A stretch of 64,000 bases of DNA from Patescibacteria group bacterium (GCA_041649155.1 JBAZNP010000001.1:173808-237807), one strand, 5' to 3'. Shown: positions 8,138 through 28,016, counted from the stretch's first letter. Notes: generated by a model from the letters alone, not told the origin. Translations and numbers: made by a program.

Positions 8138-8213
8138 TCCCCGATAGCTCAATTGGCAGAGCGCTTCGCTGTTAACGAAGATGTTACTGGTTCGAGTCCA
8201 GTTCGGGGAGCCA
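8138..8213 (+). tRNA. tRNA-Asn (anticodon GTT)
   Basis: Cloverleaf by eye: acceptor TCCCCGA/TCGGGGA, anticodon arm CTTCG-CTGTTAA-CGAAG, T-arm ACTGG-TTCGAGT-CCAGT, encoded CCA. An extended -10 element (TGATAGAAT) lies about 40 bp upstream. Confidence 0.85.
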
Positions 8214-9674
8214 ATTCACATTTTTACTACAAAGAGCCATTGCATCAAATGGCTTTTTGTAATTCCAGAGTAGTTTTTTACCTCTCAACCTAAGGTTTGA
8301 AAGTACGAAATTGATAAGCTGTCTCTTTTCATCTAGTTCACAACTATCAAATAGCTCTACGGCTCTCTTTGCTAGTTCTATAATATAAAAACTCGTTATT
8401 AGGAACTCTTTATCAGCAGTAGTATGATTGCTCATTTTGCCATTCAAGAACTCTTGTCTGTCCTTCAATTCTAGGAATATTTTGTCATATTGGCCGTCAG
8501 TAATACGACCCTTCAAGTTATCCAAATAAGCTTTTTGGACCATACCATCAATTTCGTCAAATTCCTTTCTGAATTGGCGTATTGATGACTTGTATACATC
8601 TCGTTCAGAATAAAAGGTTTTTTCCATTTCAGTTTTTAGTTCTTCCACAACATCATCAGGCATTACTAAGCCAACAAACGCTTTTCTGACTTGAGACAAT
8701 AGTTCTTCCTCTGTAACCCTTTCAGCACCGCATTTGCCCTTATATTGGTTGCAGATGCAATAATTGATACCTTTAGTTGGGTCTTTACCAACCATACAAT
8801 CACAATGGTCGCATTTAACTAGTCCTCTAAATGCAAACGGCTTGCTTGCATACTTAATTACAGTATGAGATTTTCCCTCTCTTACAGCTTTGCATTTTTC
8901 AAATAGCCATTTTTCAATAAGTGGTTCATACCTATGAGGATGAAGTTTGCCGTTATAAAGCATAACCCCATAATAAAAAGGGTTCTTTAATATTTGGTCC
9001 AGTTGGCTTTTTATTACTGGCTTTCCTGCTTTAGTGCTATTTCTTAAACCCTCGTCTTTCAAAATTTGAACTATCTGCTTGAGGCCATAGTTTCCAGTTG
9101 AGTAGAGTTCAAATGCTTTTTTAACCAAATAACCCCTATTTTTATCAATAACTACTTCTTTCCTTTCATTGATATCAGCATTAAGGTAGCCGATAGGTGC
9201 TTTCTCTGGCCATTCGCCATTTCTTATTTTTTGCTCAATTGACCTTTTTACATCATCAGATAATCTGTTCAAATATTGCTTAGCAAGAAAGACCTTTGCT
9301 TCCCACATAAACATTTGGTTACCAGTAGCTTCTGCATTTATATAGAAACCCTCTTGAACAAAGTGTATTTCCAAGCCATCATTTCTTCTTAATTCGTCAA
9401 TATCAACAGCGTCTCGGAAATTTCTCGTTGCTCTGTCTACATTTTGGCAAAGCAAAACCCTAACATCCTTATTTTTCTTCAGATAGTCGAGTACTTCTTC
9501 AAATTTTCTTCTTATTTTGTGTCCAGCACTTTCAGAGAAAGAAAATTCTTTATCAATCTTAAAATTATTTTTGAGGGCATATTCTTTTAGTCTTCTTATC
9601 TGTGCAGGGAGCGAATGCCCCATTTCTTCCTGCTCTTTTGTCGAAACTCTTGCCAGAATTATAGCTTTTCGCAT
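8184..9674 (-). CDS. large serine recombinase (integrase)
   Basis: N-terminal resolvase domain (ILARVSTKEQ with the catalytic Ser, and VDRATRNFRD), a recombinase domain, and a Cys-rich Zn ribbon (CDHCDC...CICNQYKGKCG). The last 10 codons are encoded by the complement of the tRNA-Asn 3' half. Confidence 0.85.
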   Translation of the reverse strand: MRKAIILARVSTKEQEEMGHSLPAQIRRLKEYALKNNFKIDKEFSFSESAGHKIRRKFEEVLDYLKKNKDVRVLLCQNVDRATRNFRDAVDIDELRRNDGLEIHFVQEGFYINAEATGNQMFMWEAKVFLAKQYLNRLSDDVKRSIEQKIRNGEWPEKAPIGYLNADINERKEVVIDKNRGYLVKKAFELYSTGNYGLKQIVQILKDEGLRNSTKAGKPVIKSQLDQILKNPFYYGVMLYNGKLHPHRYEPLIEKWLFEKCKAVREGKSHTVIKYASKPFAFRGLVKCDHCDCMVGKDPTKGINYCICNQYKGKCGAERVTEEELLSQVRKAFVGLVMPDDVVEELKTEMEKTFYSERDVYKSSIRQFRKEFDEIDGMVQKAYLDNLKGRITDGQYDKIFLELKDRQEFLNGKMSNHTTADKEFLITSFYIIELAKRAVELFDSCELDEKRQLINFVLSNLRLRGKKLLWNYKKPFDAMALCSKNVNWLPELDSNQ

Positions 9675-9724
9675 AATAACCTTTCTTATTTATAATTATA
9701 CGTTACTTATAGTCAACAATAAAG

Positions 9725-10822
9725 TTATGTCCCGTCTAAATATTCGCTTATTTTAAGCATTTCAAAGCTACTCAACTGGTTTGATACTTGTTCAAATCCT
9801 TGAGCTTTAACGTTTTTAGGCAGATTTAGAGAGAGTATGTCCTTTTTAAGCTTAGTAAAAGTTTTACCAGATGATGCTTTCTCTAGTAGTCTTTTGAATC
9901 TATCCGCACCCTCCTCTTTGATAACCCTAACAGACATCGCTAACGCCAGTGCTGTAATCGGTCTAAATTTACGGCTCTCTAAAATTTTTTCAAGAACAGT
10001 AAAATCATCGCTGTCCTTTATAAGTGCTAATTGCATATTTGAAGTTATCTCTTCCCAATAATGATTTAGCACCTGTTGAGATAGCTTTTTTGAGAACATA
10101 TTTTCTAAGGTCAAATCATTAGTAATGTTGAGAGTTTTGAATAATTGTTTAATCTTTGCCCTTTTCACTAATCTAATTTCAAATCTCAACACTTCCATCG
10201 GTCTCTGTTTCTTCTTAATTTCGTCAAATAAATTAAGCTGAATTGCACTCTCTTTCTCAAAAGCTCTTTTTTCGCTTATCTTGGATTGCTCCATATCCTT
10301 AATCTTGTCGTAAATTGCAATTTCAAATGAATTACAGTGAAAATGCAAAATATAACCAAAATTTCTAAAGCTATTTTGTTGAATATCAAGGCGTTTAGTT
10401 AGGTCAATCTTCTTAAGTTCATTCAGAATCATTGTACTTTTCCAGTAATTGCTTAGAGCTATATTTTTAGAAAAATCTATTTTTGACACATCAGCCGTTC
10501 TCAAAAAAGAAGGAAAAACCCCAATGCCCATAATCTTTAATCTTTCGGCAAGAATTTTGACGAGACTGTCGAAATCAGTTTCATTAAGTTCATCAAAGTT
10601 GTTACCGAACAGCATTTTTGGTGCTGAAAATTCAATCTTTAAGAACAACTTTGAACCGCCCCGCTTATATGGGGTCAATCTTGGCAAATAAACATCGCTT
10701 TTTCTGCTTCCGTTATAGGCGAGTTTGTCAAAGCCATTGTTAGAGGAAATTGGGATGAACTTAGTGTTATCTGTTATCCAAAATTCATTCGGCTTCAAAG
10801 TTATGGCTATTGTATCTATCAT
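9725..10822 (-). CDS. putative replication-initiation protein (Rep_trans-like), or hypothetical
   Basis: About 365 aa with no clear motif. The assignment is only by general resemblance to rolling-circle or phage Rep proteins and by island context. The start is uncertain and overlaps spoVG. Confidence 0.3.
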   Translation of the reverse strand: MIDTIAITLKPNEFWITDNTKFIPISSNNGFDKLAYNGSRKSDVYLPRLTPYKRGGSKLFLKIEFSAPKMLFGNNFDELNETDFDSLVKILAERLKIMGIGVFPSFLRTADVSKIDFSKNIALSNYWKSTMILNELKKIDLTKRLDIQQNSFRNFGYILHFHCNSFEIAIYDKIKDMEQSKISEKRAFEKESAIQLNLFDEIKKKQRPMEVLRFEIRLVKRAKIKQLFKTLNITNDLTLENMFSKKLSQQVLNHYWEEITSNMQLALIKDSDDFTVLEKILESRKFRPITALALAMSVRVIKEEGADRFKRLLEKASSGKTFTKLKKDILSLNLPKNVKAQGFEQVSNQLSSFEMLKISEYLDGT

Positions 10823-11087
10823 TACTTTTTTCAATTACTTCTTTGGCTTTGTTAATTATTGCTTCTTCAATACTCTTGGAAGTTTCTTTATTGATGGGAT
10901 GGAATAAATTTATTTGCCTAATCCCAATTTGCTTTGTGGGGTAGGTTATCCGATAGCCAGAACCATCAGCTTTTACGTGTATCCCAATAGAACTTAAGTA
11001 GATGCTCTGATTAACTACCAAGCTCGCAAACGCAATTAGACCATCTTTTGCCTTAATGGGGATAATTTGTACTTCAGATATTTCCAT
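10785..11087 (-). CDS. spoVG: SpoVG-family nucleic-acid-binding protein
   Basis: MEISEVQIIPIKAKDGLIAFASLVVNQSIYLSSIGIHVKADG...FHPINKETSKSIEEAI aligns to the SpoVG core (MEVTDVRLRRV...AIASITLD...HDIRV...HPIN). Confidence 0.6.
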   Translation of the reverse strand: MEISEVQIIPIKAKDGLIAFASLVVNQSIYLSSIGIHVKADGSGYRITYPTKQIGIRQINLFHPINKETSKSIEEAIINKAKEVIEKSNDRYNSHNFEAE

Positions 11088-11316
11088 CGTTTACTCCTTC
11101 TTTTTCTTTCTGTCTTATTCGGAGGTCTATTTTCATAAGTAATTCAAAGAAGCCGACTAAATTGCTTTTCATATCTGCAATCTCATCAACAGAAAGAGCG
11201 TGGCCGTAAAGTTGTTCAAGGGGTGTAGATTGTTTTTTGGTTTCTTGCATAAAAAATATCCTCGAATAGAGGATACTTCTTAGATTATGGTCGCTACTAT
11301 GCTACTGAATGGTCTC

Positions 11317-11991
11317 TTATGGTCTCAAATGGTCTTTGTCTTTATTATTGACTCTTACCATTAAGCTCAAATTACCGCAGTTATTGACTAATTCGACAGG
11401 TTTTAATTTTGTTCTAGTCCTTATCTTCTTAATCCTGTCGTTTATAATAATATTATTTAGTGTTTTATCATTTGCGTCAGATTCGCTTAAACCGAGTTCG
11501 CTCAATAGCTCCTGCCTTGAAAGGTAACCGTTATTAAGAACTATCTTATTGAATATCTTGTAAAGATTTTTATCTGTTTGAAATTTGAACGGATTGTCCT
11601 TGATATAACCAATCCCAGAACTAGGACTATACCAGTTTGTAGTTTCTGGCTCGGCAATCTGTTCTTTCTTAGTTTTGCCTTTTCTTAATTGTTCAAGGGT
11701 TAGTCTTCGTATTTCCGCTTCCTCTCTCTGTTTTGTAAAATCAGGGGCAATAGCCGTATAAGTTACTGGCTCAGGGAAATTAAATTGGGGCATCTCTATT
11801 TTTCCAAGGCGTTTCAAGTTTTCTGCAGCTGAGGCTGCCGCATCTTTTACGGCAGACAACATAGTTCCAGAAATAATATCTTTTGGGATTATGCTGTTTG
11901 CTTTTACTAATTCGCCAAGACCTGAAAAATTATCCGAGGATTCGGGAAGATTATCTAGGTCTAAATCAAATTTTTTACTATTTTCGCTCAT
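11317..11991 (-). CDS. hypothetical protein
   Basis: 224-aa ORF on the island with no recognisable motif. Confidence 0.4.
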   Translation of the reverse strand: MSENSKKFDLDLDNLPESSDNFSGLGELVKANSIIPKDIISGTMLSAVKDAAASAAENLKRLGKIEMPQFNFPEPVTYTAIAPDFTKQREEAEIRRLTLEQLRKGKTKKEQIAEPETTNWYSPSSGIGYIKDNPFKFQTDKNLYKIFNKIVLNNGYLSRQELLSELGLSESDANDKTLNNIIINDRIKKIRTRTKLKPVELVNNCGNLSLMVRVNNKDKDHLRP

Positions 11992-12016
11992 ATTATTACT
12001 GCTTTAGGTTCGTTTT

Positions 12017-12898
12017 TTAGAACTTCATTTCAGGCACTTTTTTAGTTTTAATTCTATCATCCATAGTATCTATATTTTCTAGTAGTTGCTTATCAGGAAT
12101 TTTTATTGCTATCTCTTTTGATAAATTAAGGTATTTCCTAGCTTCTCGGTATCGGTACATTGTCCTCAGCTGATTGGCATAATTATAAAGAGCTAGTGCT
12201 TTTTCTGGCAAATCGTTATTTTCTTCTGAGATACTAATCGCTTTGAGAAAAAACTTATCAGCTTCTTTGTGTAGTAATTTCAATCCTTTTTTGTCTTTTC
12301 TATTATACAAGAGATGCTCTAATCTTTTCTCAATCAACCAATGTTGTAACCCATTCTTTCCAATTTTATTGTATCGTAATTCCATTGAGCGATAGCCGTA
12401 TGCTTGGCCAATCATTGAATAAACAGTTGACATAAGAGCAGAATCTTTTGTCTTATCTGCTATGCCCTCTGCTTCCTTGAGACTTTGTGTTGCATTTTCT
12501 TCTAGGTCACTTAGCTCTTGCTCAAGCGTTTCATATTCAACTTGTTCTCTTTCAAGCGAAAACTCAAACCATTCAGGCGAGAGTTTTATTCTTTTCATTC
12601 TGTCTATACTTCTTAGTTTCTTGTGAAGTGAGAGCAATCCTTTATAACACAAAGCGATAGCTTTTATATCCTTGTCTACCAATCTGTTGGACAAGCGTAT
12701 TGTTTCGTTGGTTATGACCAAAAGCTGTTCTGTATCTCTCACAGGGTCCAAAGAACGATTAAGCTCCAGACCACAATTTAATCGCATAACCACATTAGAA
12801 GAAGAATTAAAAATATCAAGAAACATCTTTGCTGCTTCCTCTTTATGCCCAACTACGATCATTGCTTCGGCTTGGCTAAATTTATCTTCTTCGGACAT
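12017..12898 (-). CDS. hypothetical protein (helical, possibly TPR-like)
   Basis: 293 aa. Overlaps the upstream gene by 17 nt, which suggests an operon. Confidence 0.45.
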   Translation of the reverse strand: MSEEDKFSQAEAMIVVGHKEEAAKMFLDIFNSSSNVVMRLNCGLELNRSLDPVRDTEQLLVITNETIRLSNRLVDKDIKAIALCYKGLLSLHKKLRSIDRMKRIKLSPEWFEFSLEREQVEYETLEQELSDLEENATQSLKEAEGIADKTKDSALMSTVYSMIGQAYGYRSMELRYNKIGKNGLQHWLIEKRLEHLLYNRKDKKGLKLLHKEADKFFLKAISISEENNDLPEKALALYNYANQLRTMYRYREARKYLNLSKEIAIKIPDKQLLENIDTMDDRIKTKKVPEMKF

Positions 12899-13829
12899 AT
12901 TTGTATCTTATACTTAATAAAAATATTCTAAGTTTATTGGGGATTACCTTTTTTAGAAAAAATTTGATATCCAGAGGGTATTTGCTAAACCAAATTCTTT
13001 TTAAGGCAGAGGAGCTGGACACAAAGTAGTTACGGCACGACCCTCTAATCATTCTGTTATCTTCCTGAACACGTTTATCTGAAATTTCAATGTATCCTCT
13101 TAAATCGTTCCAGCAGAAACAAGCCACAATATCAGTAGATAGCGGTATTGTCAGCTGGATATTCTTTTGACCCAAGCCATACCCATAAAATCTTTGCCAC
13201 TGCAAATCAGGATTAAACAAATGGCAAGGTTCATCAGAAGTTATGAACTTAGCTTTACCTTTTTTTGCTGAGCATAAGAAAGATAAGTTCATATGAACGA
13301 GCATTTCTGTTATATCTGGCAACAGATTTGACAAAGTTAACTTATGAGCGTCTGTCTTATAGCTTCTGAGTTCATTGGATTTCTTCGGAGGTATATTATG
13401 AGCAGCTTCCATCCGCTCTGTCATTTCAATAATCTGGTCTAAGTTCTGTTCAATGTTTTCCTTTTGACCTTTAGTTCTTAGCATCATTGCGGCAACAAAA
13501 GCGCACAATATAATATGTTCTTCATTAGACAAGGGTTTTCTTTTTGCAATCTTATCCTGAAAAATGAGGGCATACTTATCTTCCAGCTCAGAAAGAGAAA
13601 TTTCAATTGAGTAATCATAAACGTTATTGGCACAAGAAGCTTTAGGGGATTTTAACGAGTAAATATGTTTGCTAACAAAAGCTTTCTCAACTTTCTTGAG
13701 TTCTTTTGTCTTGCCGTCTTTGCTAAATATCCATATCCGCGGGTCGTTGCCCGACTGACTTGGGTCTGAAAATTGCTTAAGATAGCATTGAGAAATATAA
13801 TGTTGTCGCTTAGGATTACCCATAAGCAA
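12882..13829 (-). CDS. DUF4238-like protein
   Basis: The N-terminal RQHYISQCYLKQF motif resembles the DUF4238 signature (HYvPqfYLrxF). Confidence 0.4.
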   Translation of the reverse strand: MLMGNPKRQHYISQCYLKQFSDPSQSGNDPRIWIFSKDGKTKELKKVEKAFVSKHIYSLKSPKASCANNVYDYSIEISLSELEDKYALIFQDKIAKRKPLSNEEHIILCAFVAAMMLRTKGQKENIEQNLDQIIEMTERMEAAHNIPPKKSNELRSYKTDAHKLTLSNLLPDITEMLVHMNLSFLCSAKKGKAKFITSDEPCHLFNPDLQWQRFYGYGLGQKNIQLTIPLSTDIVACFCWNDLRGYIEISDKRVQEDNRMIRGSCRNYFVSSSSALKRIWFSKYPLDIKFFLKKVIPNKLRIFLLSIRYKYVRRR

Positions 13830-13883
13830 AATATAGTTCTATATGGGCAATAAATCAAGGAAAAGTGTGTTTAATCTAGGGGA

Positions 13884-14573
13884 TTAAAGGTCCAGTAACT
13901 TTTCACCAAGCGAAGTGCTTAATTGCCATTTCATACTGCCATTTGAGAACATTTCGTTTATCATACCTAGCTCGTGCTGGTCTGCCCATTCTTTTGGAAA
14001 GGGATAAGCATCTTGATTCTTGCTGACCAAGTCAACACAATAAGAAATATCAATACAATCAGTAGCTAATTTTGCTTGACCGTCTTTATCTCTTACTTTC
14101 CCATAATTGATATCCCAGTTCTTAAAATCCTCAATTTTTTCTTTATCATCAAAAAGACTGTAATAAGATTTCTTGTCTTTGGAATGTAACTCAACGGCCG
14201 CTTTTTTCAGCTCTTCATCGGTAGGTTTTTGCGAGAAAACAATTAGTTTCCAAGTCTTCCCAGATTTTTGATAGCTAGTGACTTCACTGTAGGAAATTGT
14301 TGGCGTTGGGTTAGCTTTTGGTGTTTCTGTTGTTTGTTGGGCGGATTGCGCAGGTTGTTCTTTCTTCTCGTTTGTTGAACTTTTATCTGAACTTGAAGAA
14401 GAACCTGCAAGAACAAAGAACACAATAATTACTGCTCCTGTGGCAATCCATTTATTTCTTTTGTTCCAATCTGTTTTTGCCCAAACATACCAAGTAAGAA
14501 AGAACGGCCAGATACATATTGCCAGTATTACTCCCCACCATTTTTTGTACCATACTTGTTTCTCTTCTTTCAT
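13884..14573 (-). CDS. membrane protein, paralog A1 of 22032..22673
   Basis: N-terminal TM segment (WWGVILAICIWPFFLTWYVWAK) followed by a Ser-rich linker. Clear similarity to the protein at 22032..22673. Confidence 0.5.
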   Translation of the reverse strand: MKEEKQVWYKKWWGVILAICIWPFFLTWYVWAKTDWNKRNKWIATGAVIIVFFVLAGSSSSSDKSSTNEKKEQPAQSAQQTTETPKANPTPTISYSEVTSYQKSGKTWKLIVFSQKPTDEELKKAAVELHSKDKKSYYSLFDDKEKIEDFKNWDINYGKVRDKDGQAKLATDCIDISYCVDLVSKNQDAYPFPKEWADQHELGMINEMFSNGSMKWQLSTSLGEKLLDL

Positions 14574-14575
14574 TT

Positions 14576-15163
14576 TTACCCTTTCTTGTTAATATTTTTT
14601 ATGCCCTTAAAATAAAGTTCAGCATCCTTTGAGCTTGGACCAGATATAATAAAATGTTCATCTTTAGCCATTTCGGGATATTTTATAGTTAATGAGTTTT
14701 TTAGCATTCCATTATTAAATAAAATATCAATCGCTTTCTCATATAAAACACTTATCATTGAATTTTGCCCGACAAATATAAATCGTTTGTTGGTCATAAT
14801 CATTTGACCTGCATCTATCCTCTCAACCGCTTCTACTGATTTTTCAGAGGTTTTACTTCCCGCTGTTACAGCTCCGCCTAAAGCACCGAGTGGACCGAGC
14901 AATAATCCTCCGACAACCGCTCTGCCAGCAACACCTTTTTTCTTTTCGGTGCTGATTGTATGACTTACAATTGCCATTCTTTGAGATGAGAAAGTAGCAT
15001 ATGCATTCTCATCTGGTTCAAGGTTAAAATCAGTTTTTATCGGTTGGATATGACCTTCCAATATCTCGTTTTTTCTATGCTCTTCCTCAGCTTTTTTCCT
15101 ACTTTGCTCATCTTGATAATTTTCATAACCTTTTTTGATTTTAGAAATCAGGTCAAAACCCAT
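14576..15163 (-). CDS. glycine-zipper TM plus bacterial-PH-like protein, paralog B1 of 21432..22010
   Basis: KKGVAGRAVVGGLLLGPLGALGGAVTAGSKT is identical in both paralogs. The C-terminus (TNKRFIFVG...) is bPH_2-like. Start set at MGFDLISKIKKGY by homology. Confidence 0.5.
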   Translation of the reverse strand: MGFDLISKIKKGYENYQDEQSRKKAEEEHRKNEILEGHIQPIKTDFNLEPDENAYATFSSQRMAIVSHTISTEKKKGVAGRAVVGGLLLGPLGALGGAVTAGSKTSEKSVEAVERIDAGQMIMTNKRFIFVGQNSMISVLYEKAIDILFNNGMLKNSLTIKYPEMAKDEHFIISGPSSKDAELYFKGIKNINKKG

Positions 15164-15250
15164 AACGAACCTCTTTCTATGATTACTATTTCTGATAGTG
15201 TGACTTATAATCCGTAGACCTATAGTCATAATCTACCACAAAATGGTAGT

Positions 15251-15478
15251 ATGATAAAAGAGCAAGAGCTAAAATCTATCACAAAGAAATTCGGCCAACG
15301 AATTAGAGATGAGCGTACGAAGCAAGGGATATCCCAAGAGGAGCTTGGTTTTAGGACTGGTTTGGATAGAACTTATATTTCAGGTATTGAAAGAGGCGAA
15401 AGAAATCCGTCACTTAAAAACATCGCCAAAATAGCCATTGCTCTAAAAATAAACTTGAACGAGCTCTTTACCCTCTAA
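15251..15478 (+). CDS. XRE-family HTH transcriptional regulator
   Basis: QEELGFRTGLDRTYISGIERGERNPSLKNIAKIAIAL is a classic Cro/C1-type HTH. Confidence 0.7.
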   Translation: MIKEQELKSITKKFGQRIRDERTKQGISQEELGFRTGLDRTYISGIERGERNPSLKNIAKIAIALKINLNELFTL

Positions 15479-15527
15479 CAGTCTTCAAAATTTGGCTTTA
15501 CTAAGCTTTTTTTGGTATACCAAGATT

Positions 15528-16094
15528 ATGATGAATTTCTCAAACAATGTTTTTGGACCGCAACCGCCTAGGTTCTTACCGATAAAACCGCCAAAGCGGA
15601 AAGTTTTTATTAGCTTTCATCACGCCAATGACCAACAAGCTTACAATATATTGAAGAGATTATTTTCTGATAAATACGAGGTGTTCGAGGACCATTCGTT
15701 AAACAACCAGCTAATCAATAGCCAAATAGCCGAAAATATTGACCGAGCAATACGAGAGCGTTTTATAAAAGGGTCTTCAATTACAATTGTTCTGTGCGGT
15801 GAAGAGACCCACAAAAGAAAATATGTTGATTGGGAGATAAACTCAACATTACTACACGAACACGCATTGCTCGGAATTGTTCTACCGACAGCTACAAAGA
15901 ATGTTCAAAACCAGCACATTGTTCCAGACAGATTGGCTGTGAACGCAAATTCTGGCTATGCCCACTGGGAGCTGTGGGATAATTGTGCTGGAAGTGCAGA
16001 CAATATAAATATGGCAATTGAAGTGGCATTGTTAAATAGTAAAAACAAAAAGCTACTAGACAATTCTCTTCCTAAGATGCATAGGAATTTATGA
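15528..16094 (+). CDS. TIR-like domain protein (DUF1863 / ThsB-like)
   Basis: KVFISFHHANDQQ and KYVDWEINS motifs typical of MTH538/TIR-like domains. Overlaps the downstream gene by ATGA. Confidence 0.55.
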   Translation: MMNFSNNVFGPQPPRFLPIKPPKRKVFISFHHANDQQAYNILKRLFSDKYEVFEDHSLNNQLINSQIAENIDRAIRERFIKGSSITIVLCGEETHKRKYVDWEINSTLLHEHALLGIVLPTATKNVQNQHIVPDRLAVNANSGYAHWELWDNCAGSADNINMAIEVALLNSKNKKLLDNSLPKMHRNL

Positions 16095-18601: not shown

Positions 18602-18627
18602 AAAAAATTCTCCGAAATCATTTGGCC

Positions 18628-19903: not shown

Positions 19904-19938
19904 CTTTCGCCTTAATCTTAATATTCATATTTTTGTGG

Positions 19939-20187
19939 CTAGCTGTTATGCAGCCTTGATTTCAAAGTTCGCTGAGCGGAATAATATTGAGTCGTTATAA
20001 GTTTTAATCGTCCAGAAAAATGAGCCTCTGCAGCTGTCTCAATTCCGTTTTTTCTCTGAAAAACAAACGCTACCCGACCATCGCCAGAAGTTCGGTCAAG
20101 AGATAAGAGATTATAGCCGAGAGCCATTAGAGCGGAGGCATTCGCAAAGTCACAAGTTTGATAAAAGTCGCTTTCAGAAATGTTCAT
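19939..20187 (-). CDS. small hypothetical protein
   Basis: 82-aa ORF. Weak evidence. Confidence 0.25.
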   Translation of the reverse strand: MNISESDFYQTCDFANASALMALGYNLLSLDRTSGDGRVAFVFQRKNGIETAAEAHFSGRLKLITTQYYSAQRTLKSRLHNS

Positions 20188-20276
20188 CTTAATCCTTTCA
20201 ATAAATAAAAAACGAGGTTAATTACTATACCTCGATTTTATAGAAAGGATTGTTGAGTCAATTTTGAAAAAGTTGA

Positions 20277-21110
20277 CTAAAAGTTACGAATTACTGATTT
20301 GCTTCTCCAACTAAATAGTTCGTCGTTAGTATTTAATTTCTTTTTAATTTGATTATTTATATCATTCATTGAATCATACACTTTGCGCCACTGGTTCTTT
20401 TCGGGCTCGGAATTACCAGACATTTCCGTGTAGATTTCATCCCAACAAATAGCTTTTCCTGCTGGCTGATTAAACATCATACGACAGAGATAGTGGTTGT
20501 TTTTGTGAAGCGGCATTGCACATTTGGTTTCGCCAATAATTACTTCTGCCGAATCGTCGTTATAATCAATTTGAAAATTAGAAAGTGATATTTTCTTAGG
20601 TTTCATACGTTTTTCTCGTTCTTGTATAGTCTTATCAACGTTTTCTTCCATCTTTGCAAAACCTTGTTTGCAAATCTTTGAATGCTCGTAACAAAGTTCT
20701 TGGATTGAATCGGCAATTTCTTGTTCTTCAGGTAAAATTCCTACTGTGTATCCATTGATAATAAATTCTTTATCTACTAGTCCAAGAAATGATAATAAAT
20801 TTGTTTGCTCCGTTTCCCAATAGCATTCATATTCTAGAACATCGCCAAACAGCGACTCTGGTAATTGCGGGCAATCCTTGGCCAATTCCTTAAAGTCTTC
20901 TCTTGAGAGAAAATTATCCAACCCTAGCTTTAGATTGGCATATGCATAATTTAATGCTCCGTCAGGATAATAGACCATTTCGCCACAAACACTCTCTAAG
21001 ATCTGGTAAATAAGTGAGATATAAAAACGGAAATGCCTAATAGCGAATTTATATTCTACTGCCTGTAGAAATGCAAGTTTATCTTTTATGTCAAAATCTT
21101 CAATATTCAT
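20277..21110 (-). CDS. hypothetical protein
   Basis: 277-aa ORF. Confidence 0.45.
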   Translation of the reverse strand: MNIEDFDIKDKLAFLQAVEYKFAIRHFRFYISLIYQILESVCGEMVYYPDGALNYAYANLKLGLDNFLSREDFKELAKDCPQLPESLFGDVLEYECYWETEQTNLLSFLGLVDKEFIINGYTVGILPEEQEIADSIQELCYEHSKICKQGFAKMEENVDKTIQEREKRMKPKKISLSNFQIDYNDDSAEVIIGETKCAMPLHKNNHYLCRMMFNQPAGKAICWDEIYTEMSGNSEPEKNQWRKVYDSMNDINNQIKKKLNTNDELFSWRSKSVIRNF

Positions 21111-21286
21111 CTTTATCTTTATACTTATACTTACTTAAACCAACGTAACAAATTAGAACTGATTACTCAATTGTCCATTGTGTTTTTGATAATTTTGAGG
21201 CATAATTCAAATTGTCAGAGCGATCTGATAAACACAATCTAGTTGCACCTAACCCTTACCAGCAATGATAAGGTATGGTGCCAAAT

Positions 21287-21400
21287 CCTCGGTTAAAAAC
21301 AATGACGGTCTAGCGACCGCACTTTTTAACCGAGGTCTGTGCTCGAAAGGGCGCAGGATAGTCCCGAAAGGGGCTGTCGTGGTTCGCTAGGCCATTTTTG
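21287..21400. other. structured intergenic element: 13-bp-stem hairpin plus two GAAA-tetraloop hairpins
   Basis: CCTCGGTTAAAAA..(23 nt)..TTTTTAACCGAGG, then GCTC-GAAA-GGGC and GTCCC-GAAA-GGGGC. Lies about 30 bp upstream of the paralog B2 start. Confidence 0.3.
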
Positions 21401-21431
21401 TATTTTATTAAATATTAACCAAGGACTAAGA

Positions 21432-22010
21432 ATGGGAATGCTTGCAAATATCAAAAAATCTTATGGGGATTATCAGGACAAAAAAGCAAAGGAAAAAGCT
21501 GAGGAGGAAGCAAGACAGAAATCTATTTCACAGGGAGAGATTGAGCCCATTAAAACTGATCTGAATCTTGAAGATAGAGAAATCGCCTATGCAGCGTTCT
21601 CTGCCAACAGGATGGCGCTGGTGGCTAAAACTGCCAGTAAAACGCAAAAGAAAGGTGTTGCAGGCAGAGCAGTAGTCGGAGGTCTGTTGCTGGGACCATT
21701 GGGGGCCTTGGGAGGTGCTGTAACCGCCGGAAGTAAGACAACCGAAAAAACATTTGAAGTTGAAGAAAAAATTGACAACGGTACTATAACTTTCACAAAT
21801 AAACGCTTTGTATTTATAGGGCGCGATATTATGGCAAATATCCCTTACGACAAAGTGGTTGATATGAAATTTGAGCAAAAGATTTTTGGTACCGATCTTC
21901 ACGTTAGATATCCCGAAATGTTAAAGGGAGAATATTTTCATTTATCAGGAGAAGATTCAAAAATTGCTGAACTATGGTTTAAGGGCATACAAAAAATAAG
22001 CAAGCGGTAG
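21432..22010 (+). CDS. glycine-zipper TM plus bPH-like protein, paralog B2
   Basis: Start at MGMLANIKK with an AAGGA ribosome-binding site. Paralog of 14576..15163. Confidence 0.5.
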   Translation: MGMLANIKKSYGDYQDKKAKEKAEEEARQKSISQGEIEPIKTDLNLEDREIAYAAFSANRMALVAKTASKTQKKGVAGRAVVGGLLLGPLGALGGAVTAGSKTTEKTFEVEEKIDNGTITFTNKRFVFIGRDIMANIPYDKVVDMKFEQKIFGTDLHVRYPEMLKGEYFHLSGEDSKIAELWFKGIQKISKR

Positions 22011-22031
22011 TTATTAAAAGAAAGGAAAATT

Positions 22032-22673
22032 ATGGTCCAATTTGGAGAATCGGAAACTAAAAAAACAGAAACCAGCACAAGTGAATGGTATAAACACGGT
22101 CTAGGATTAGTTGTGGCTATTTTGTTTTTGCCGTTTTTTGCTATTTGGTATATCTGGGCAAAAAGTGGATGGAACAGTGTGACAAAATGGAGCTTAACTG
22201 CAGTTGTTGCAGTTTTGTTTATTATCATTGCATCTTCTGGCAATAATTCACCCCAACAAGCATCAAACAGCAACAGCACGAGTAACACGACAGCAAATAC
22301 AACCACGACTACCGCTCCGCAACAGTCTCAGGTAAAACCAGCTTACGAGATAGTAACCGATGGTAGCCAAAATGCACTAGCAAAACTAGTGGTTTACACC
22401 CCAGAAAAAGATGATCAAAAGCTGATTGCAATAAATGATGAGCTTCTAAACAAATACAAAGCAAATCACTCAAATATTTATTTTGATTACTTTGACGACA
22501 AAGAGATTGCTAAAACTTATTTTGATAAACAACTTGATGATATTGTTAGTGAATCAGAAAAAGACGCTATGTTCACTCATTACGTCGCAAATATGAAATA
22601 CAATCTATCAAGTGGTCTCAAAACATTTTCTAAAAATGTGAATGGTGACTGGCAATCCATAAAAAGTTACTAA
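22032..22673 (+). CDS. membrane protein, paralog A2
   Basis: The N-terminal TM segment (LGLVVAILFLPFFAIWYIWAK) matches paralog A1. Contains an S/N/T-rich linker. Confidence 0.5.
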   Translation: MVQFGESETKKTETSTSEWYKHGLGLVVAILFLPFFAIWYIWAKSGWNSVTKWSLTAVVAVLFIIIASSGNNSPQQASNSNSTSNTTANTTTTTAPQQSQVKPAYEIVTDGSQNALAKLVVYTPEKDDQKLIAINDELLNKYKANHSNIYFDYFDDKEIAKTYFDKQLDDIVSESEKDAMFTHYVANMKYNLSSGLKTFSKNVNGDWQSIKSY

Positions 22674-22681
22674 CGATACAA

Positions 22682-23740
22682 TCAATATTTCTTAATTGCT
22701 CTTTTAACATACTCATCCACTGATATTTTTTTGGCTTGAAATCCAGTCCAAGCGCTTTCCAAATCTTCGTTTTTAATAAAGATATCCTCTTTCAACCCCA
22801 ATCGTATCGGTGATTTGAATCCATTCCTTTTTCTTATTTCTTCAAGAATTTGGGTATTGAACTGCTCTATTAAATAATTTCTAATATCATTTAAGAATTT
22901 TGAATAACGATTACAAATATAAATATCATAATAGTTAGTAACGCTTCCTTCTTGATACAAATGGTTAAATTTCTTTCGTATTCTGCCTCTTGATATGTCT
23001 TGTCTTCTTTTTACTTCTTGAAAAGTTATGTGACGAGCTCTCTCGACTCCCAGTGAATGATTGTCCGGCTCTGCCCAGCCTAATGACTGATTCACACTAA
23101 ACTGTAAAAATTCAGTAGCGACAGAAAGCTCTCTTGAAGATTGTTGCGTAGGCGACTCTTTGGAAAAAGGGTATTCCACAAGAAAAATATCTTCGCTACC
23201 TACGATCGTCGTCTTTGGTCGGGCTTCTTTGTTCGCCAAGTAGGTCCAAAGGCTATAAGAATGCTTCACAGATCGCAATCTGTCTGCTTTTTTTCTGATC
23301 TTGATCGTTGCTCCGTCGAGGTGGTGGAAGGTAGGCAAAATATAAAACGAATTATTCACCTTCTGTTGTTTCCATTCAATAAAATATGCCGAGAAGTGAT
23401 CAACCAGAATCCCAAAAAAAGAAAATTCAAAAAATTGAGCAAGATCATTCGCGCCTGAATAAATCCGGGATTCATTTTCTAAAAAATATTCCATCAAATT
23501 GCTTCTAAGTACGGCATTCTTGTTTTCTAAATCAAAATAGTCTGAATTATATGTTACATATCCAGGACGGCCAGCGGGTTTTGTGAGCGGAGGATAAAGC
23601 TCGTCCTTAAATCGGTTTGTTTCTATGAATAATTGAGTTCCATCCCTAGTTGCTTTTTCTCTTGCATCAAAACCTTTTACGAAACGAAGAAATTCGTCTC
23701 GTTGGCCTCGCCTTAATTGATCTTTATTTCCGTTTCTCAT
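22682..23740 (-). CDS. hypothetical protein (partner of the 838-aa membrane protein)
   Basis: 352 aa. Overlaps the upstream gene by 17 nt. Confidence 0.45.
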   Translation of the reverse strand: MRNGNKDQLRRGQRDEFLRFVKGFDAREKATRDGTQLFIETNRFKDELYPPLTKPAGRPGYVTYNSDYFDLENKNAVLRSNLMEYFLENESRIYSGANDLAQFFEFSFFGILVDHFSAYFIEWKQQKVNNSFYILPTFHHLDGATIKIRKKADRLRSVKHSYSLWTYLANKEARPKTTIVGSEDIFLVEYPFSKESPTQQSSRELSVATEFLQFSVNQSLGWAEPDNHSLGVERARHITFQEVKRRQDISRGRIRKKFNHLYQEGSVTNYYDIYICNRYSKFLNDIRNYLIEQFNTQILEEIRKRNGFKSPIRLGLKEDIFIKNEDLESAWTGFQAKKISVDEYVKRAIKKY

Positions 23741-26240
23741 TGACTCCTTTCAGAATCTTGATGATTTTCGCAACTTGTTCTCGCTTTTCCAACCACTCAA
23801 CAAAATCGTCAAGTACAAATTCGAGATCATAGTAGAACATCTCGTCAGATCCAATTTTTTTGACTAGACTGCTTGGGTGTTCTACAGTTTCCGTGTAATA
23901 GCCTCCGCCATTCCCATCCCAAACTTTAGGTAATCTGCTAATTTCCTGAGTAATGTTTTGATAATGCCTATTAAATCTTTGCATTTCGTCTTCTATCAAC
24001 CCAAAAGTACTATTAAACCCTAGAGCGCTTTTGACTTTATTTGCAGATGCTAGTGCTTGATACATAAAGCCTTCTTGATAAAATTTACCATCAATATTTT
24101 CTAAGAATTCCTTAATGTAAAACCGGTCATTATCAAGTTCTGAAACTAACCACGTGAATGCTCCAATAATGAGCGGAAGCCTGAATAGATGCAGGATCTC
24201 TTGTTGATCAGTAATCTTGTCTCGCAAAACAATTAGTGTATATAAATAAGACTTAATTAAAAATCTGAAAAGTTTTTTGTCACGATGAACTAAGGCTGTC
24301 AGCAGTCCCTTCTCTAAAACCTCTCGCAACTCCACTTCTTTGACTAGGGATTGTGGTACTAATAAAATTATTTTTAAGGACAGATTGATGGAGTCAATAA
24401 AATGGTCCGCCAAATCCCACTTCTCTAGATAGATCAATCTGCCGAGCCAGGTATATTGTATTTTTAGTATATCAGCGACATTTCTCCAATTTTGCGACCC
24501 GACATCAGCTCTCAGCATTTTGTTGGATTGCTGCAATATTTCTTCAATTTTTTTCTCTACGACGGGGTTTGTTTTTTTGAGGTATTCTTTTATTACCTCA
24601 TCAACAAGCCATTCTAAGGGCGTAATTACCTTGCCCTCGACTAGTTGCTCCGTCTCAATTCGCTCCCTGTAATCCAAAAGAATATCTCTAGCCGTTACTG
24701 GCAAGTCAAAAGCTGATAACTCCTTCATAGAGATGGCTTTATTTTTTTTGACTAGAAGCCTTGTCGTTTTCTGAATCACGTCGACGGGATACCCATCAAG
24801 CACTACTTGACCGTAAGCAAAAAGAATATTCATATACACAGCAGAAAGTTTTTCATCGGATTTAACCAGATTATACAAATCACAAAATAACTGCCATATT
24901 TTATCGTTAATGTAATATTCTTGATGCTCAAAGGCGCTCGGCTCAACCTTTTCGTTGAACCCTAGTTTATTTTTGGCATACTCACCGCATAAAATCTTTT
25001 CATAGGCGCTTAATAGCCCTGATAGAATCTCCTTGTTAGAATTAGTCTCTGTGTCATTTTGGAGCTCTGTAAAAAAATAACAAGCCGTGTCCTCTAGCCA
25101 ATTAAAATCTGGCGCTGTAGTTAGTAGTGGCCCAGTGTTTTTAGATTCATATGAGGACTTAATAGGATACATCAATCTATTCGAGGCGCTTACGGGTTCA
25201 AATCTTTGTGGAAATGCCCAGGGGCGATTTCTATCAATGTACCTTTTTGCTCTCAAGTACTTCTGTAACACGCTAGAAAAGAAAATCGGACCAGAGGAAG
25301 CATCCTCATAGTTTTTATTCCGTGTTAAATCATAAAATAGAGCACTTCCCAAACTCAGCAAGCGAGAAATGCTTTTTTGTGAAGCTAACACGATTGTCCA
25401 ACTGGTAAAAAAGTTTGAATACAAACGAAAACTTTTAACCCTTTTGTCTTTATATAGGCGAAAACTGGATACAAAAGGATTGTCGGATGCATTTACAATT
25501 CGTATGCTTTGGTAAGCCTCCTGGTACATTCTTCTGAACAGACTCAAAGGTTTAAGAGAAATCACATAATGGTCTTTGAAGATTATGACCCCGCACAATG
25601 ACATTGTAAATAAGAAAATTGATATTCCGAATGATATTACAGGAAGGCTCTTCGTAATTCCCAAGAAAAGAAGTGAAAATAATGAAAAAAGGATAGTCAC
25701 AACCAAAAGTCGCATAAAATGATTGCCAACTTTTTCTTTATTTACATACTCAGTTATCTTGTCAGAATATTTTTCCGTTGAAAGTTGAAATCCAACAGCA
25801 TATAACGCAAATATTAAACCAAGTAATGCTCCTGTGGCACCGACAATTATCTCCAATGTTAATTTTGCAATATTGCTAAAATCAGCAAGATCAAAAGTGT
25901 CTGCAATAAAATTGTGTCTAAAAAAACCTCCGTGACTTATAAATGCCAAATCTAATAGGAAGAGAAAACAAGAAATAATAAGAAAGTAGATGATAAGTTT
26001 GGATGAATTCTTTAGAATCTCATAATCAATCAATATACTTTTCAATTCTTCTAGTCTATTGAATTTCCAGACTCGCCAGTGCTCTTCTTCTTTTTTGTAA
26101 AAATAATAAAGAAAACCGGCAACCAGATCAAAAGTCCTAGCCAAAAAATTCCTTCGTTCTTCCCCAAAGTTCGGAAGGACCCTATCTTTAGATTTTCTAG
26201 CTTTGCGATAGAAAAATCTGATTGTATTTATGATAATCAT
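23724..26240 (-). CDS. large multi-TM protein of unknown function
   Basis: 838 aa. Several N-terminal hydrophobic helices, then a cytoplasmic domain of about 600 aa with no known motifs. Confidence 0.5.
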   Translation of the reverse strand: MIIINTIRFFYRKARKSKDRVLPNFGEERRNFLARTFDLVAGFLYYFYKKEEEHWRVWKFNRLEELKSILIDYEILKNSSKLIIYFLIISCFLFLLDLAFISHGGFFRHNFIADTFDLADFSNIAKLTLEIIVGATGALLGLIFALYAVGFQLSTEKYSDKITEYVNKEKVGNHFMRLLVVTILFSLFSLLFLGITKSLPVISFGISIFLFTMSLCGVIIFKDHYVISLKPLSLFRRMYQEAYQSIRIVNASDNPFVSSFRLYKDKRVKSFRLYSNFFTSWTIVLASQKSISRLLSLGSALFYDLTRNKNYEDASSGPIFFSSVLQKYLRAKRYIDRNRPWAFPQRFEPVSASNRLMYPIKSSYESKNTGPLLTTAPDFNWLEDTACYFFTELQNDTETNSNKEILSGLLSAYEKILCGEYAKNKLGFNEKVEPSAFEHQEYYINDKIWQLFCDLYNLVKSDEKLSAVYMNILFAYGQVVLDGYPVDVIQKTTRLLVKKNKAISMKELSAFDLPVTARDILLDYRERIETEQLVEGKVITPLEWLVDEVIKEYLKKTNPVVEKKIEEILQQSNKMLRADVGSQNWRNVADILKIQYTWLGRLIYLEKWDLADHFIDSINLSLKIILLVPQSLVKEVELREVLEKGLLTALVHRDKKLFRFLIKSYLYTLIVLRDKITDQQEILHLFRLPLIIGAFTWLVSELDNDRFYIKEFLENIDGKFYQEGFMYQALASANKVKSALGFNSTFGLIEDEMQRFNRHYQNITQEISRLPKVWDGNGGGYYTETVEHPSSLVKKIGSDEMFYYDLEFVLDDFVEWLEKREQVAKIIKILKGVNEKRK

Positions 26241-26353
26241 TACTCTTGTTTTAGCACTTCCAGATCAGCTAAACAAGACAAAACGCTAGGCATAACTCCT
26301 TTTCCAGATTTTTTGATATGATCTAATTAAGGAGTAAAGAATGAAAGAGGCAA

Positions 26354-27211
26354 TTGATGGAGAGATCATTAAAAAAGAAAACGAAAAATGGGCCAGATTT
26401 CTTTATAAGGTCTACAAAAGAAAAAGGGACAAGCAGAACAAAACCCATAATCAGCATAATGATGGAATCTATGAATCCTGAATATGAAAAATCGAGAAAA
26501 AGAATAATTGAGATTGTTGACCAACAATGCAAAATGTTAGGGAATGACATTTCCACTTTTCAATTTGTAAGAGAATCAGGTCAGCTATCAAAAATTCCTG
26601 AACTCGGAGGCGGAAATATTCTAAGTCTTAACGGACTTTTTGCGGTAGTGAATTTAATCGCTAAAATTCACTATGCCAAAATGCACACGAAATCAATTTT
26701 GTCTCCCAAGGAGATAGCTATAATCAGAGAAGAGATAAAGACGTTAAAAAAACAAAATCCAAAAATCAAGCAATATATAATGATGCCAAAGAATATCAAT
26801 ATCAATGAATCGGTCGCTTTTCGTGAGCTCATTACCGATTCCGATATTGACTTGGGTATCGAGCATAAAGATCTTCAGAATGTTTGGGATAAATACAGAA
26901 ATGGCTTAGCTCATTATGCTTGTCAAAAAGGTCAATCTTCAGCCGTGGCTTGTGATGCCGAAATGCACAAGATTACAACAGTAAAAGTAACTCCTGCACT
27001 CATCAATGAATTTTTTAATGCTAGAAATGATAAATCGTTTGTCGAAAAAGATGGCTGGTATTTTTGTCTTTTTGATTTCTTTAAGAGGGACGTGCTTTTT
27101 GGACTGAAAGAATTTATCTTAAAAGAGATTGAGGCCGCGACTTATGAAGAGTTGGATAGAATTTGCTACATAATGTGTGCAAGTTTAGATATCAAAATAC
27201 TGGCTGATTAA
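26354..27211 (+). CDS. hypothetical protein
   Basis: 285-aa ORF. Confidence 0.4.
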   Translation: MMERSLKKKTKNGPDFFIRSTKEKGTSRTKPIISIMMESMNPEYEKSRKRIIEIVDQQCKMLGNDISTFQFVRESGQLSKIPELGGGNILSLNGLFAVVNLIAKIHYAKMHTKSILSPKEIAIIREEIKTLKKQNPKIKQYIMMPKNININESVAFRELITDSDIDLGIEHKDLQNVWDKYRNGLAHYACQKGQSSAVACDAEMHKITTVKVTPALINEFFNARNDKSFVEKDGWYFCLFDFFKRDVLFGLKEFILKEIEAATYEELDRICYIMCASLDIKILAD

Positions 27212-27278
27212 ATAAGGGATTGAATTATTGATATTTGATATAATAAGACAAACTTAACTAATTATAAATGAGTAAAAT

Positions 27279-27908
27279 ATGACTATCTGGGATCAAATTT
27301 ATAAAAACCATCAAAAGGGTGGCGATGCTTGGGCAACTTTATCAGAAGGGATTGACCCAAGATTTATTGACCTCGTCGACAAAGCAGAACTCAAATTGAG
27401 AAGTGCTTTTGATATTGGTTGCGGTACAGGTAAGTATTTAAGATATTTGCAATCTAGGGACTTTCAAGTAGCCGGCATTGATAGCAGCGAAACTGCAGTT
27501 GAAATGTCAAAGAAAAGCCTTGGAGATTCTGCTGATATTGTTCTTGCTGATATGTACGACTTCAAAATACCAAAGAATAAATATGACCTAATCTTATCCG
27601 TTTCCACTCTTCATCACGGGACGAAGGAACAAATTCAAGGCTTGATCAGCCAGATATGTGATAATCTGTCTATTGACGGGAAAATCTTCATAACTTTGCC
27701 AGACATTGAGTGCAATAAAAAATGGAATACTTTCAAAGACGATAAAGAAATTGCTCCGGGAACATATTCGCCTCTTTCTGGACCAGAAAAGGGTTTGCCG
27801 CATAGTTTCTTTTCTAAAAAGGAAATTGAATCGTTATTCTTAGGTTTTAGAGACGTTAGCCTTAGTATTGATAAAATAGGGCGATGGTTTGTGGTCGGGA
27901 CAAAATAG
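27279..27908 (+). CDS. class I SAM-dependent methyltransferase (TehB-like)
   Basis: Motif I is DIGCGTGKYLRYL. About 210 aa. Confidence 0.7.
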   Translation: MTIWDQIYKNHQKGGDAWATLSEGIDPRFIDLVDKAELKLRSAFDIGCGTGKYLRYLQSRDFQVAGIDSSETAVEMSKKSLGDSADIVLADMYDFKIPKNKYDLILSVSTLHHGTKEQIQGLISQICDNLSIDGKIFITLPDIECNKKWNTFKDDKEIAPGTYSPLSGPEKGLPHSFFSKKEIESLFLGFRDVSLSIDKIGRWFVVGTK

Positions 27909-28004
27909 GTTGGCTATTTAGCTACAAGTACTCAAGGCAGCAATTTTAACACTTATTCTTTGCCAGTAGTCATAATTTGTAAGTAATTTTATAAAATTTG
28001 AATT

Positions 28005-28016
28005 CTCGGGGAGCCA
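28005..28016. repeat. direct repeat of the tRNA-Asn 3' terminus (putative attR)
   Basis: TCGGGGAGCCA is identical to tRNA positions 8203..8213. Confidence 0.4.

Follow-up and report, generated by a model that had tools for sequence, protein, structure and literature searches.

The 64-kb window examined here, meaning the whole stretch of DNA that was analyzed, is part of a 603-kb metagenomic contig with the NCBI name "Patescibacteria group bacterium". An intact tRNA-Asn gene stands at the left edge of a block of accessory genes, among them two genes for large serine recombinases (LSR1 and LSR2), and short copies of the tRNA 3′ end, the cores, occur at three places along the block. The block is discussed below as two candidate integrated elements, E1 and E2, which are compared with related loci (L numbers) and their recombinases (P numbers). 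The features that bear on this interpretation are as follows, with open reading frame (ORF) products measured in amino acids (aa).

8138..8213, + strand: intact tRNA-Asn(GTT), called by ARAGORN; putative integration target (attB B arm plus core)
8203..8213, + strand: attL core TCGGGGAGCCA; its last 9 nt (8205..8213) are common to all three core copies
8184..9674, - strand: LSR1, large serine recombinase of E1 (from Pfam and homologues), 496 aa in the integrated state, ending ...NWLPELDSNQ and a stop
8214..16641, - strand: E1, ~8.4 kb; an E1-like element occurs alone in L083
16513..16632, - strand: putative native C-terminal tail of LSR1, LVYKFRTEYYDSILQLNNEIKVLSEYAFLKRIPELTLTR and a stop (P arm of attP1), now read in frame behind LSR2
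16633..16641, + strand: middle core GGGGAGCCA, the last 9 nt of the tRNA, inside the LSR2 gene; putative hybrid junction P1-O-P′2 between E1 and E2
16513..18159, - strand: LSR2, the E2 large serine recombinase, chimeric here (548 aa), with the LSR2 body up to W-L-P (residues 507-509) joined to the LSR1 tail
16642..28016, - strand: E2, ~11.4 kb; 16633..22669 is 87-92% identical to L081/L082
27918..28005, - strand: putative native C-terminal tail of LSR2, ENSNFIKLLTNYDYWQRISVKIAALSTCS and a stop (P arm of attP2)
28006..28016, + strand: attR core TCGGGGAGCCA, a displaced copy of the tRNA 3′ end
28017..28050, + strand: host flank (B′ arm); resembles a terminator and is homologous to the stretch directly 3′ of tRNA-Asn in the empty site of L084

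As an earlier note on this DNA had reported, the LSR1 gene ends inside tRNA-Asn. At its end, nine sense codons (W L P E L D S N Q) and the stop codon TAA (8184..8186) are antisense to the T-arm, the acceptor 3′ strand and CCA, an overlap of 30 nt, so that the last 10 codons are, as also claimed, the complement of the tRNA 3′ half. The 11-mer TCGGGGAGCCA, which comprises the tRNA acceptor 3′ strand, the discriminator and CCA, has only two copies in the 64 kb at ≤1 mismatch; the right-hand copy had been recognized previously, with its start placed one base off at 28005 instead of 28006. To the right of 28016 the accessory genes give way, where the same note had put the change, to an ABC/MacB export block (genes for a DUF5666-like protein, a MacB/FtsX permease, an ABC ATPase and an HlyD-like protein). 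The GC profile that had been suggested as a check gave 0.34-0.37 for the island and 0.37-0.41 for the flanks, a contrast too weak to define the island ends. Searching inside the island for a 25-mer of the tRNA with 3 mismatches returned only the tRNA itself, and a generic repeat search missed the cores and is uninformative on the boundaries.

Shuffled sequences contained a mean of 0.36 matches to the 11-mer at ≤1 mismatch, and two or more turned up in 3 of the 100 shuffles, so this count alone leaves room for a chance match with the true boundary elsewhere. We take the comparative data to settle the matter against chance, which is extremely improbable: the same 11-mer bounds an E2-only element in L082, the flank past 28016 matches an empty site, and the stretch leading up to the copy at 28006..28016 codes for the conserved LSR2 tail. 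These matches also answer the objection, raised with the original prediction, that the 11-mer might recur by chance.

The third core, of 9 nt, came to light only through the translation of LSR2; the earlier count of two was right for the outer copies and missed this one. At its C-terminus LSR2 reads ...SQLWLPLVYKFRTEYYDSILQL...RIPELTLTR and a stop, and its W-L-P codons, TGGCTCCCC, are GGGGAGCCA on the + strand. All LSR2 homologues cease aligning exactly at this core (93% of the query), and P0121, a recombinase 95% identical to LSR2, ends ...SQLWLPELDSNQ (WLPELDSNQ and a stop) at tRNA-Asn. The residues that follow the core in LSR2 resemble tails found among LSR1 relatives, with sequences like LVYKFRTEYYDSILQLNNEIKVLSEYAFLKRIPELTLTR and a stop in P0011, P0032 and P0111. 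When the - strand is read from 28016, at the right end of the block, it yields WLPENSNFIKLLTNYDYWQRISVKIAALSTCS and a stop. About one-tenth of the recombinase relatives carry such a native (non-tRNA) tail, of which two types were seen: type (a) in LSR1 relatives (WLxxVDxFRTxxYDSIL...IPEL) and type (b), to which the sequence read from 28016 belongs, in LSR2 relatives (WLPSSPLIITLLKDxxY...L.ERL).

Each half of the block also exists on its own. L081 (GCA_023484645.1) and L082 encode P0121 and carry an E2-type element alone at tRNA-Asn, in a related host whose left flank shares its synteny with that of the window (cupin, PAP2, guanylate kinase, Big_7, NrdD). In L082 the element is bounded by the same 11-mer, the copies lying 10.07 kb apart, and its attR encodes WLPENSNFIKLLTNQDYWQKINVKMAALGACA and a stop, which matches the window tail at 28016..27918 and is of equal length. 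Between these loci and the window the element DNA is 87-92% identical and the host flanks 70-83%, and homology ends exactly at 16633; the higher identity of E2 therefore implies recent horizontal movement. Copies also differ in cargo. L083, from another organism in the same sample, has an E1-like element alone in tRNA-Gln(TTG), with a recombinase (P0002) 79% identical to LSR1 and the gene set of E1 (a ~370-aa protein, SpoVG-like, TPR, DUF4238 and helix-turn-helix (HTH) proteins). The far end of this element, at L083:4805, encodes WLPLVDVFRSEYYQIILRLKSEFELL... (WLPLVDVFRSEYYQIILRL...), homologous to the tail now behind LSR2. Finally, L084, the closest relative found (cupin 80% identical, same synteny), has the tRNA-Asn and no recombinase, and represents the empty site that the earlier note had proposed seeking in a related genome. 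A hairpin with a T-run directly 3′ of its tRNA-Asn aligns with window positions 28017..28050, and the tRNA-Asn sequence of the window is identical in L081, L082 and L084.

These loci bear on a reading close to the original one, in which the block is a single composite element of 19.8 kb that LSR1 moves as a whole by its outer 11-bp repeats, with LSR2 as cargo or a relic. The outer repeats are indeed the longest, a tandem array can in principle excise whole via attL x attR, and paralogous PH/gly-zipper and transmembrane (TM) pairs show that the two halves are related. Against this stand the internal core at 16633..16641, in frame in LSR2, and the finding of the two kinds of element singly, E2 in L082/L081 and an E1-like one in L083, both with a repeat and a tail of their own. 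The homology with L082 also breaks exactly at 16633, and the matching of tails to recombinases fits an exchange within a tandem array. We consider a composite element very unlikely. What stands of the earlier interpretation is that mobile DNA was integrated at the tRNA-Asn 3′ end by serine recombination; the single element gives way to two in tandem, and the 11-bp identity, presented as the two attachment sites of one element, is between the outer sites of two different elements.

Our preferred interpretation, to which we assign a probability of about 0.82, is that E1 and E2 form a tandem array, each with attP in its own recombinase ORF, inserted at the tRNA-Asn 3′ end. It draws on the three cores, the chimeric ORFs, the relatives with a single element or an empty site and the overlap of recombinase and tRNA genes throughout the family. 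The intact tRNA at one end, the displaced 3′ copy at the other and the empty site in a relative are the features of a tRNA-integrated island, and the internal att copy, together with each unit alone elsewhere (E2 in L081/L082, E1-like in L083), points to a tandem array.

Each element would have been inserted into the tRNA-Asn 3′ end by its own large serine recombinase. The attP core, the complement of the acceptor 3′ strand, discriminator and CCA, would lie in frame as W-L-P, ~30-40 codons before the native stop. Recombination would then rebuild an intact tRNA and join the recombinase body to antisense tRNA (...WLPELDSNQ and a stop), and the native tail would be left at the far end of the element, adjoining attR. 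The layout of the array would be B-O-P′1 ... P1-O-P′2 ... P2-O-B′. Since core and reading frame are shared in tandem, LSR2 would carry the LSR1 tail, and its own tail would lie at 27918..28005. The predicted length of LSR1 is 529 aa when free (native tail) and 496 aa when integrated; that of LSR2 is 538 aa when free and 515 aa when integrated alone, compared with the 548-aa chimera found here.

An AlphaFold model of P0111, a relative with a native tail, has a mean predicted local distance difference test (pLDDT) score of 82. It contains long paired helices at residues 342-446, and confident prediction extends as far as an element that ends at residue 486, shortly ahead of the core (490); pLDDT falls to 33-54 in the tail. 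Because the modeled fold ends before the core, the enzyme should survive the tail swap with its catalytic, recombinase, zinc-ribbon and coiled-coil parts intact, as an integrated element needs for excision.

The overlap of recombinase and tRNA is not confined to this locus. At least 1743 relatives of LSR1 were obtained at E≤1e-20 among the 8000 candidates scored, and 79 genome loci encoding relatives, from Patescibacteria, Alpha- and Gammaproteobacteria, Chloroflexi, Babeliales and others, were run with ARAGORN; 73 of them have an ORF with its stop inside the locus. The stop codon falls inside an antisense tRNA in 57 of these 73 complete ORFs (Asn 34, Gln 10, Trp 3, Leu 3, Lys 2, Glu 2, Arg 1, Gly 1, His 1), with overlaps of 10-129 nt (median 40). 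Several of the remaining loci have D-S-N tails though ARAGORN called no tRNA. D-S-N is the antisense reading of the T-loop (GGTTCGAnTCC), and tails of this type (WLPELDSNQ, WLGREDSNLR, GLRGQDSNL, WRPLRDSNPC) are present in 59 of the 120 best LSR1 homologues, while most of the others stop two to four codons past the W/L-L/R pair. The residues at the junction track the tRNA partner, with WLP found at tRNA-Asn, WLG at tRNA-Gln, WRP at tRNA-Glu, WCP at tRNA-Leu and WSG at tRNA-Gly. Such an overlap is the rule throughout the recombinase family. In IMG/VR only relatives of ≤36% identity were found, some of which also end in tRNA-Gln or tRNA-Pro.

Both recombinases have the domains of large serine recombinases, namely a resolvase domain, a recombinase domain and a zinc ribbon with coiled coil, and the earlier identification of a second such gene is supported by Pfam. 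LSR1 matches Resolvase (PF00239, E 1.5e-20) and Recombinase (PF07508, 1.8e-13), with a weak zinc ribbon (Zn_ribbon_recom, PF13408; 18.4 bits against a cut-off of 25.3); LSR2 matches PF00239 (E 4.5e-24) and PF07508, with PF13408 above the cut-off. In the catalytic domain R9, S11, D80, R81 and R84 are invariant in 23 relatives, as is C288 of the zinc ribbon, where C291, C293 and C308 are nearly invariant. NCBIfam scores lie far below every equivalog cut-off, so no named subfamily can be assigned. LSR2 is only 27% identical to LSR1, and its family shows the same tRNA-derived tails.

Attachment sites (attP/attB) were reconstructed for E1, E2, L082, L083, L019, L023, L035 and L038, and in-frame native tails of 30-37 codons were recovered at attR of the last four. 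The identity blocks at the reconstructed sites are 9-12 bp long, with TGGCTCC common to all. For E1 the attP/tRNA attB identity is TGGCTCCCC (9 bp), and for E2 a manual reading of the sequences gives TATGGCTCCCCGA (13 bp) between attP and the host attB. In the LSR1 family the attP arm coding for the native tail contains TT(C/A)GAAC at +22..+28 from the T of TGG (E1, L019, L023, L038, L056, L064, L068, L090); attP1 itself has TCAGAAC, which resembles the T-loop, at 22-28 nt counted from that T, and the L083 arm is a near match (CAGAAG). The T-loop complement TTCGAAC lies at +17..+23 in the tRNA, 5 bp closer in than the attP motif. In serine integrases the motif bound by the zinc-ribbon domain sits 5 bp further out in attP than in attB (Rutherford 2013, PMC3783163), a spacing rule to which the arm on the tRNA side conforms in 8-9 reconstructed or intact attP sites; these all belong to the LSR1 family, are homologous examples and concern one arm only.

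On this pattern we put the odds that the zinc-ribbon domain recognizes the T-loop at slightly better than even. The domain would read the T-loop complement TTCGAAC in the tRNA, the attP arm would mimic this motif at +22..+28, and crossover, delimited by the identity blocks of 9-13 bp, would fall at about +5/+6, corresponding to tRNA positions 70-71, because of the 5-bp offset between attB and attP. The "F/I-R-T" motif of type (a) tails may then reflect, at least partly, a constraint on the DNA.

The E1-like element of L083 (ends at 4805 and 11462) has an Asn-type attP core, TGGCTCCCCC, yet sits in tRNA-Gln(TTG), with an identity of only 9 bp (ATTGGCTCC), which points to relaxed targeting, or the use of secondary sites, among tRNAs that end in GGAGCCA. 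A tRNA-Arg(TCT) gene lies just outside the far end of this element (4364..4438).

The exchange of tails raises the possibility of an integration-state switch, in which the native and the tRNA-encoded tail would differ in their effect on stability, expression or directionality. More than 10 independent attP sites, from different phyla, retain an open in-frame native tail of 30-40 codons, and the gene, once integrated, meets the tRNA gene head-on and no longer has its own 3′ end. The two E2 copies (window and L082) have tails of the same length, and the ratio of nonsynonymous to synonymous substitution rates (dN/dS) is 0.046 for the recombinase body and 0.17 over 28 tail codons, which suggests, from a tiny sample, that the native tail of LSR2 is translated and constrained. 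On the other side, the tail is predicted with low confidence outside the fold, its first 8-9 codons double as attP arm, so that conservation may be at the DNA level, and the tRNA-encoded tails range from 2 to ~40 residues with no common property. We regard a switch as possible and rather doubtful. A more specific proposal is that a large clade of serine integrases, mostly from uncultivated bacteria, has come to use the T-loop, universal in tRNAs, and the acceptor end as attB and keeps attP in its own frame, and that tail exchange and head-on placement against the tRNA would serve as a built-in sensor of integration state, tuning integrase level or directionality. Taken as a whole, this proposal is in our view unlikely.

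Several observations weigh against the tandem-array interpretation and the recognition scheme built on it. Degenerate junction patterns for attP1 and attP2 gave 0 matches each in JGI metagenomes, so that the excised circle, which the earlier note had also proposed to look for, was not found there. In L084 the flank beyond the tRNA of the empty site is limited to 137 nt, and the host belongs to a different species. Manual inspection of the reconstructed sites disclosed no clear symmetric motif on the second half-site of attP/attB and no obvious GAAC at +25..+28 in the E2 attP arm. The attP examples are homologous, not independent, the "R-T" amino-acid motif is confounded with the DNA motif, and the dN/dS of the tail comes from only 28 codons.

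The missing circular junction would fit a view of both elements as immobile fossils of ancient integrations, with decaying recombinases and a tRNA overlap that is a mere remnant. The foreign tail now borne by LSR2 would fit it too, as would the fact that our analysis of E1 and E2 identified no candidate recombination directionality factor. Yet all ORFs are intact, the catalytic and Zn-binding residues are conserved, and the LSR2 body has a low dN/dS against its L082 orthologue. E2 is more similar between hosts than are the flanks, cargo varies between copies, and an empty site exists. Fossilization is thus unlikely in our view, and E1 and E2, read as a tandem array of functional elements, may still be capable of movement.

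Other loci add to this picture. In L038, a Babeliales metagenome-assembled genome, positions 1..270 encode the C-terminus of a second recombinase of the same family, ...QKPFDMLLNCADRQDWLP, fused through the core to a native tail; the sequence points to another tandem array at tRNA-Asn in an unrelated phylum. L049 has an ORF (10001..11686) with 16 nt identical to the tRNA-Asn 3′ end (TGGCTCCCCGAACTGG), followed by unrelated coding sequence and no tRNA, and may represent an attL that has decayed or a locus that lost its tRNA by deletion. L090, which encodes P0111, has an intact attP and no tRNA, and the circularity of its contig is not demonstrable. Three independent assemblies from a related organism (L085, L086, L087) break at or inside the tRNA-Asn 3′ end, as would be expected from heterogeneity of the insert in the population. 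No further empty site was obtained from L085-L089 or L124, whose contigs end at or before the tRNA.

The remaining features of the two elements are listed here, those up to 16516 belonging to E1 and the others to E2.

8235..8254: hairpin with a 7-bp stem (AGCCATT/AATGGCT) in the LSR1 codons KKPFDAMAL, reported on the - strand by a terminator scan
9725..10834: 369-aa conserved protein
10785..11087: SpoVG-like protein
11074..11250: 58-aa ORF, followed in order by genes for a 224-aa protein and TPR, DUF4238, TM and PH/gly-zipper proteins, and then by the HTH gene
15251..15478, + strand: HTH protein
15492..16094, + strand: PDC-M50B TIR protein
16091..16516, + strand: PDC-M50A protein
19400..19903, - strand: protein with a DnaD-like N-terminal domain
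21339..22673, + strand: PH/gly-zipper and TM gene pair
27279..27908, + strand: S-adenosylmethionine (SAM) methyltransferase

E2 further contains, beside LSR2, genes for small proteins, a 352-aa protein, an 838-aa DUF2254 membrane protein and a 285-aa protein. Most of the cargo calls made from the sequence at the outset were borne out: the SpoVG-like protein (by Pfam), the SAM methyltransferase, the membrane proteins and the TIR protein, of ThsB type. The label "Rep-like" for the 369-aa protein found no match in Pfam, PHROGs or NCBIfam. No phage structural or packaging family (capsid, terminase, tail, lysis) appeared in Pfam or PHROGs among the scanned ORFs of E1 and E2. The N-terminal ~55 residues of the 19400..19903 protein match DnaD-like helicase-loader/replisome-organizer PHROGs (E 1.5e-9), the only hint of replication in either element. 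We call E1 and E2 small integrative elements with a variable cargo rich in defense genes. Cargo with a defense link comprises the PDC-M50 pair, the DUF4238 protein and the methyltransferase in the window, and KAP NTPase or a restriction-modification/Z1 cluster in relatives. A module of small ORF, SpoVG-like protein, ~370-aa protein and recombinase recurs in L083, L090 and the contig of P0082.

The TIR gene and its neighbor (15492..16516, + strand) occupy the far end of E1 and converge on the recombinase tail. PDC-M50B is the best PADLOC match of the TIR protein, ThsB models being weaker, and its 141-aa membrane partner, whose gene overlaps that of the TIR protein, matches PDC-M50A (E 8e-39); together they form a candidate two-gene defense system. 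Assignment to Thoeris was rejected, as there is no ThsA (SIR2/Macro-SLOG) and the best match is to PDC-M50.

On the tRNA strand the hairpin at 8235..8254 is followed by TTTTGT and lies 22 nt after CCA. It may replace the host terminator, which would have been displaced to 28017..28050. The end of LSR2 has no hairpin of this kind.

Each element carries a paralogous pair of genes for a PH/glycine-zipper protein and a Ser/Thr-rich membrane protein (13884..15229, - strand, and 21339..22673, + strand). The pairs lie in opposite orientation, share a 97-nt stretch of 72% identity and occur also in L081 and L082. In the host flank, an ORF of 209 aa (6933..7562), listed together with a second span (7498..7932, - strand), overlaps the cupin gene, for which gene callers use a 170-aa version; this is ordinary ambiguity of ORF starts.

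Large-DNA genome engineering relies heavily on serine integrases, which are generally considered not to use tRNA genes; here a whole family, spread over Patescibacteria, Proteobacteria, Chloroflexi and others, does so. The target tRNA can be read from three protein residues (WLP, WLG, WRP etc.), and the candidate recognition motif is the nearly universal T-loop. With a readable target and such a motif, the family would supply a natural set of integrases whose landing sites are predictable and conserved, and would allow the spacing model for the zinc-ribbon domain to be tested cleanly. The elements appear to be a major vehicle of defense genes in the tiny genomes of candidate phyla, where mobile elements are poorly known. 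For annotation, the C-termini of genes in this family are artefacts of integration state, and element finders keyed to long tRNA repeats will miss cores of 9-13 bp and tandem arrays.

Insertion of serine-integrase elements at tRNA genes has a precedent in a computational survey with TIGER, in which 14 of 297 such elements lay at t(m)RNA genes, a finding described as "not reported previously" and as needing proof (Mageeney 2020, PMC7192596). In the literature searched, tRNA targeting by these enzymes is thus unusual, as the earlier note had remarked. That study and ours are both computational and both concern serine integrases at tRNA genes, but the survey gives the count only, without the family, the gene/tRNA overlap, the attP inside the ORF or the motif spacing described here. 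No serine-integrase gene that overlaps its tRNA target or holds an in-frame attP was found in the literature searched, coverage of which is incomplete, so that absence is not proof.

LSR1 and LSR2 share their domain order (resolvase, recombinase, zinc ribbon plus coiled coil) with phiC31, Bxb1, Listeria A118/LI, SPbeta SprA, CcrAB and XisF. Known large serine integrases have short att sites with a small common core, like those of E1 and E2, and a zinc-ribbon motif 5 bp further out in attP, for which the E1-type attP offers a candidate equivalent. The target here is the 3′ end of a tRNA, whereas known serine integrases mostly use protein-coding genes, and, unlike in those enzymes, the attP core lies in frame in the integrase gene, so that the C-terminus changes on integration.

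In site choice E1 and E2 resemble P4-type islands and phage mv4 (tRNA-Ser 3′ end), with insertion at a tRNA 3′ end that restores the tRNA and an integrase gene adjoining it. Islands of tyrosine integrases at tRNA genes also share the partial tRNA copy at the far end, tandem arrays and defense cargo. Their enzymes belong to an unrelated family with a different chemistry, and E1 and E2 differ from them in that the identity block is only 9-13 bp and the integrase gene overlaps the tRNA itself.

Archaeal tyrosine integrases of the SSV1 type have attP inside int and a tRNA target, and integration splits int into two inactive parts. They share with E1 and E2 an attP within the integrase ORF, a tRNA target and an integrase gene altered by integration, but here the exchange is confined to the C-terminal tail past the folded domains, and an intact enzyme is expected. 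In the mycobacteriophages BPs and Brujita, attP reportedly lies near the 3′ end of the repressor gene, and loss of a degradation tag upon integration is said to produce integration-dependent immunity. Free and integrated forms encode different C-termini there, as they do here. The affected gene in BPs and Brujita is the repressor, with a demonstrated consequence; in E1 and E2 it is the integrase itself. Should the sensor proposal prove true, this family would provide the serine-integrase counterpart of integration-dependent immunity.

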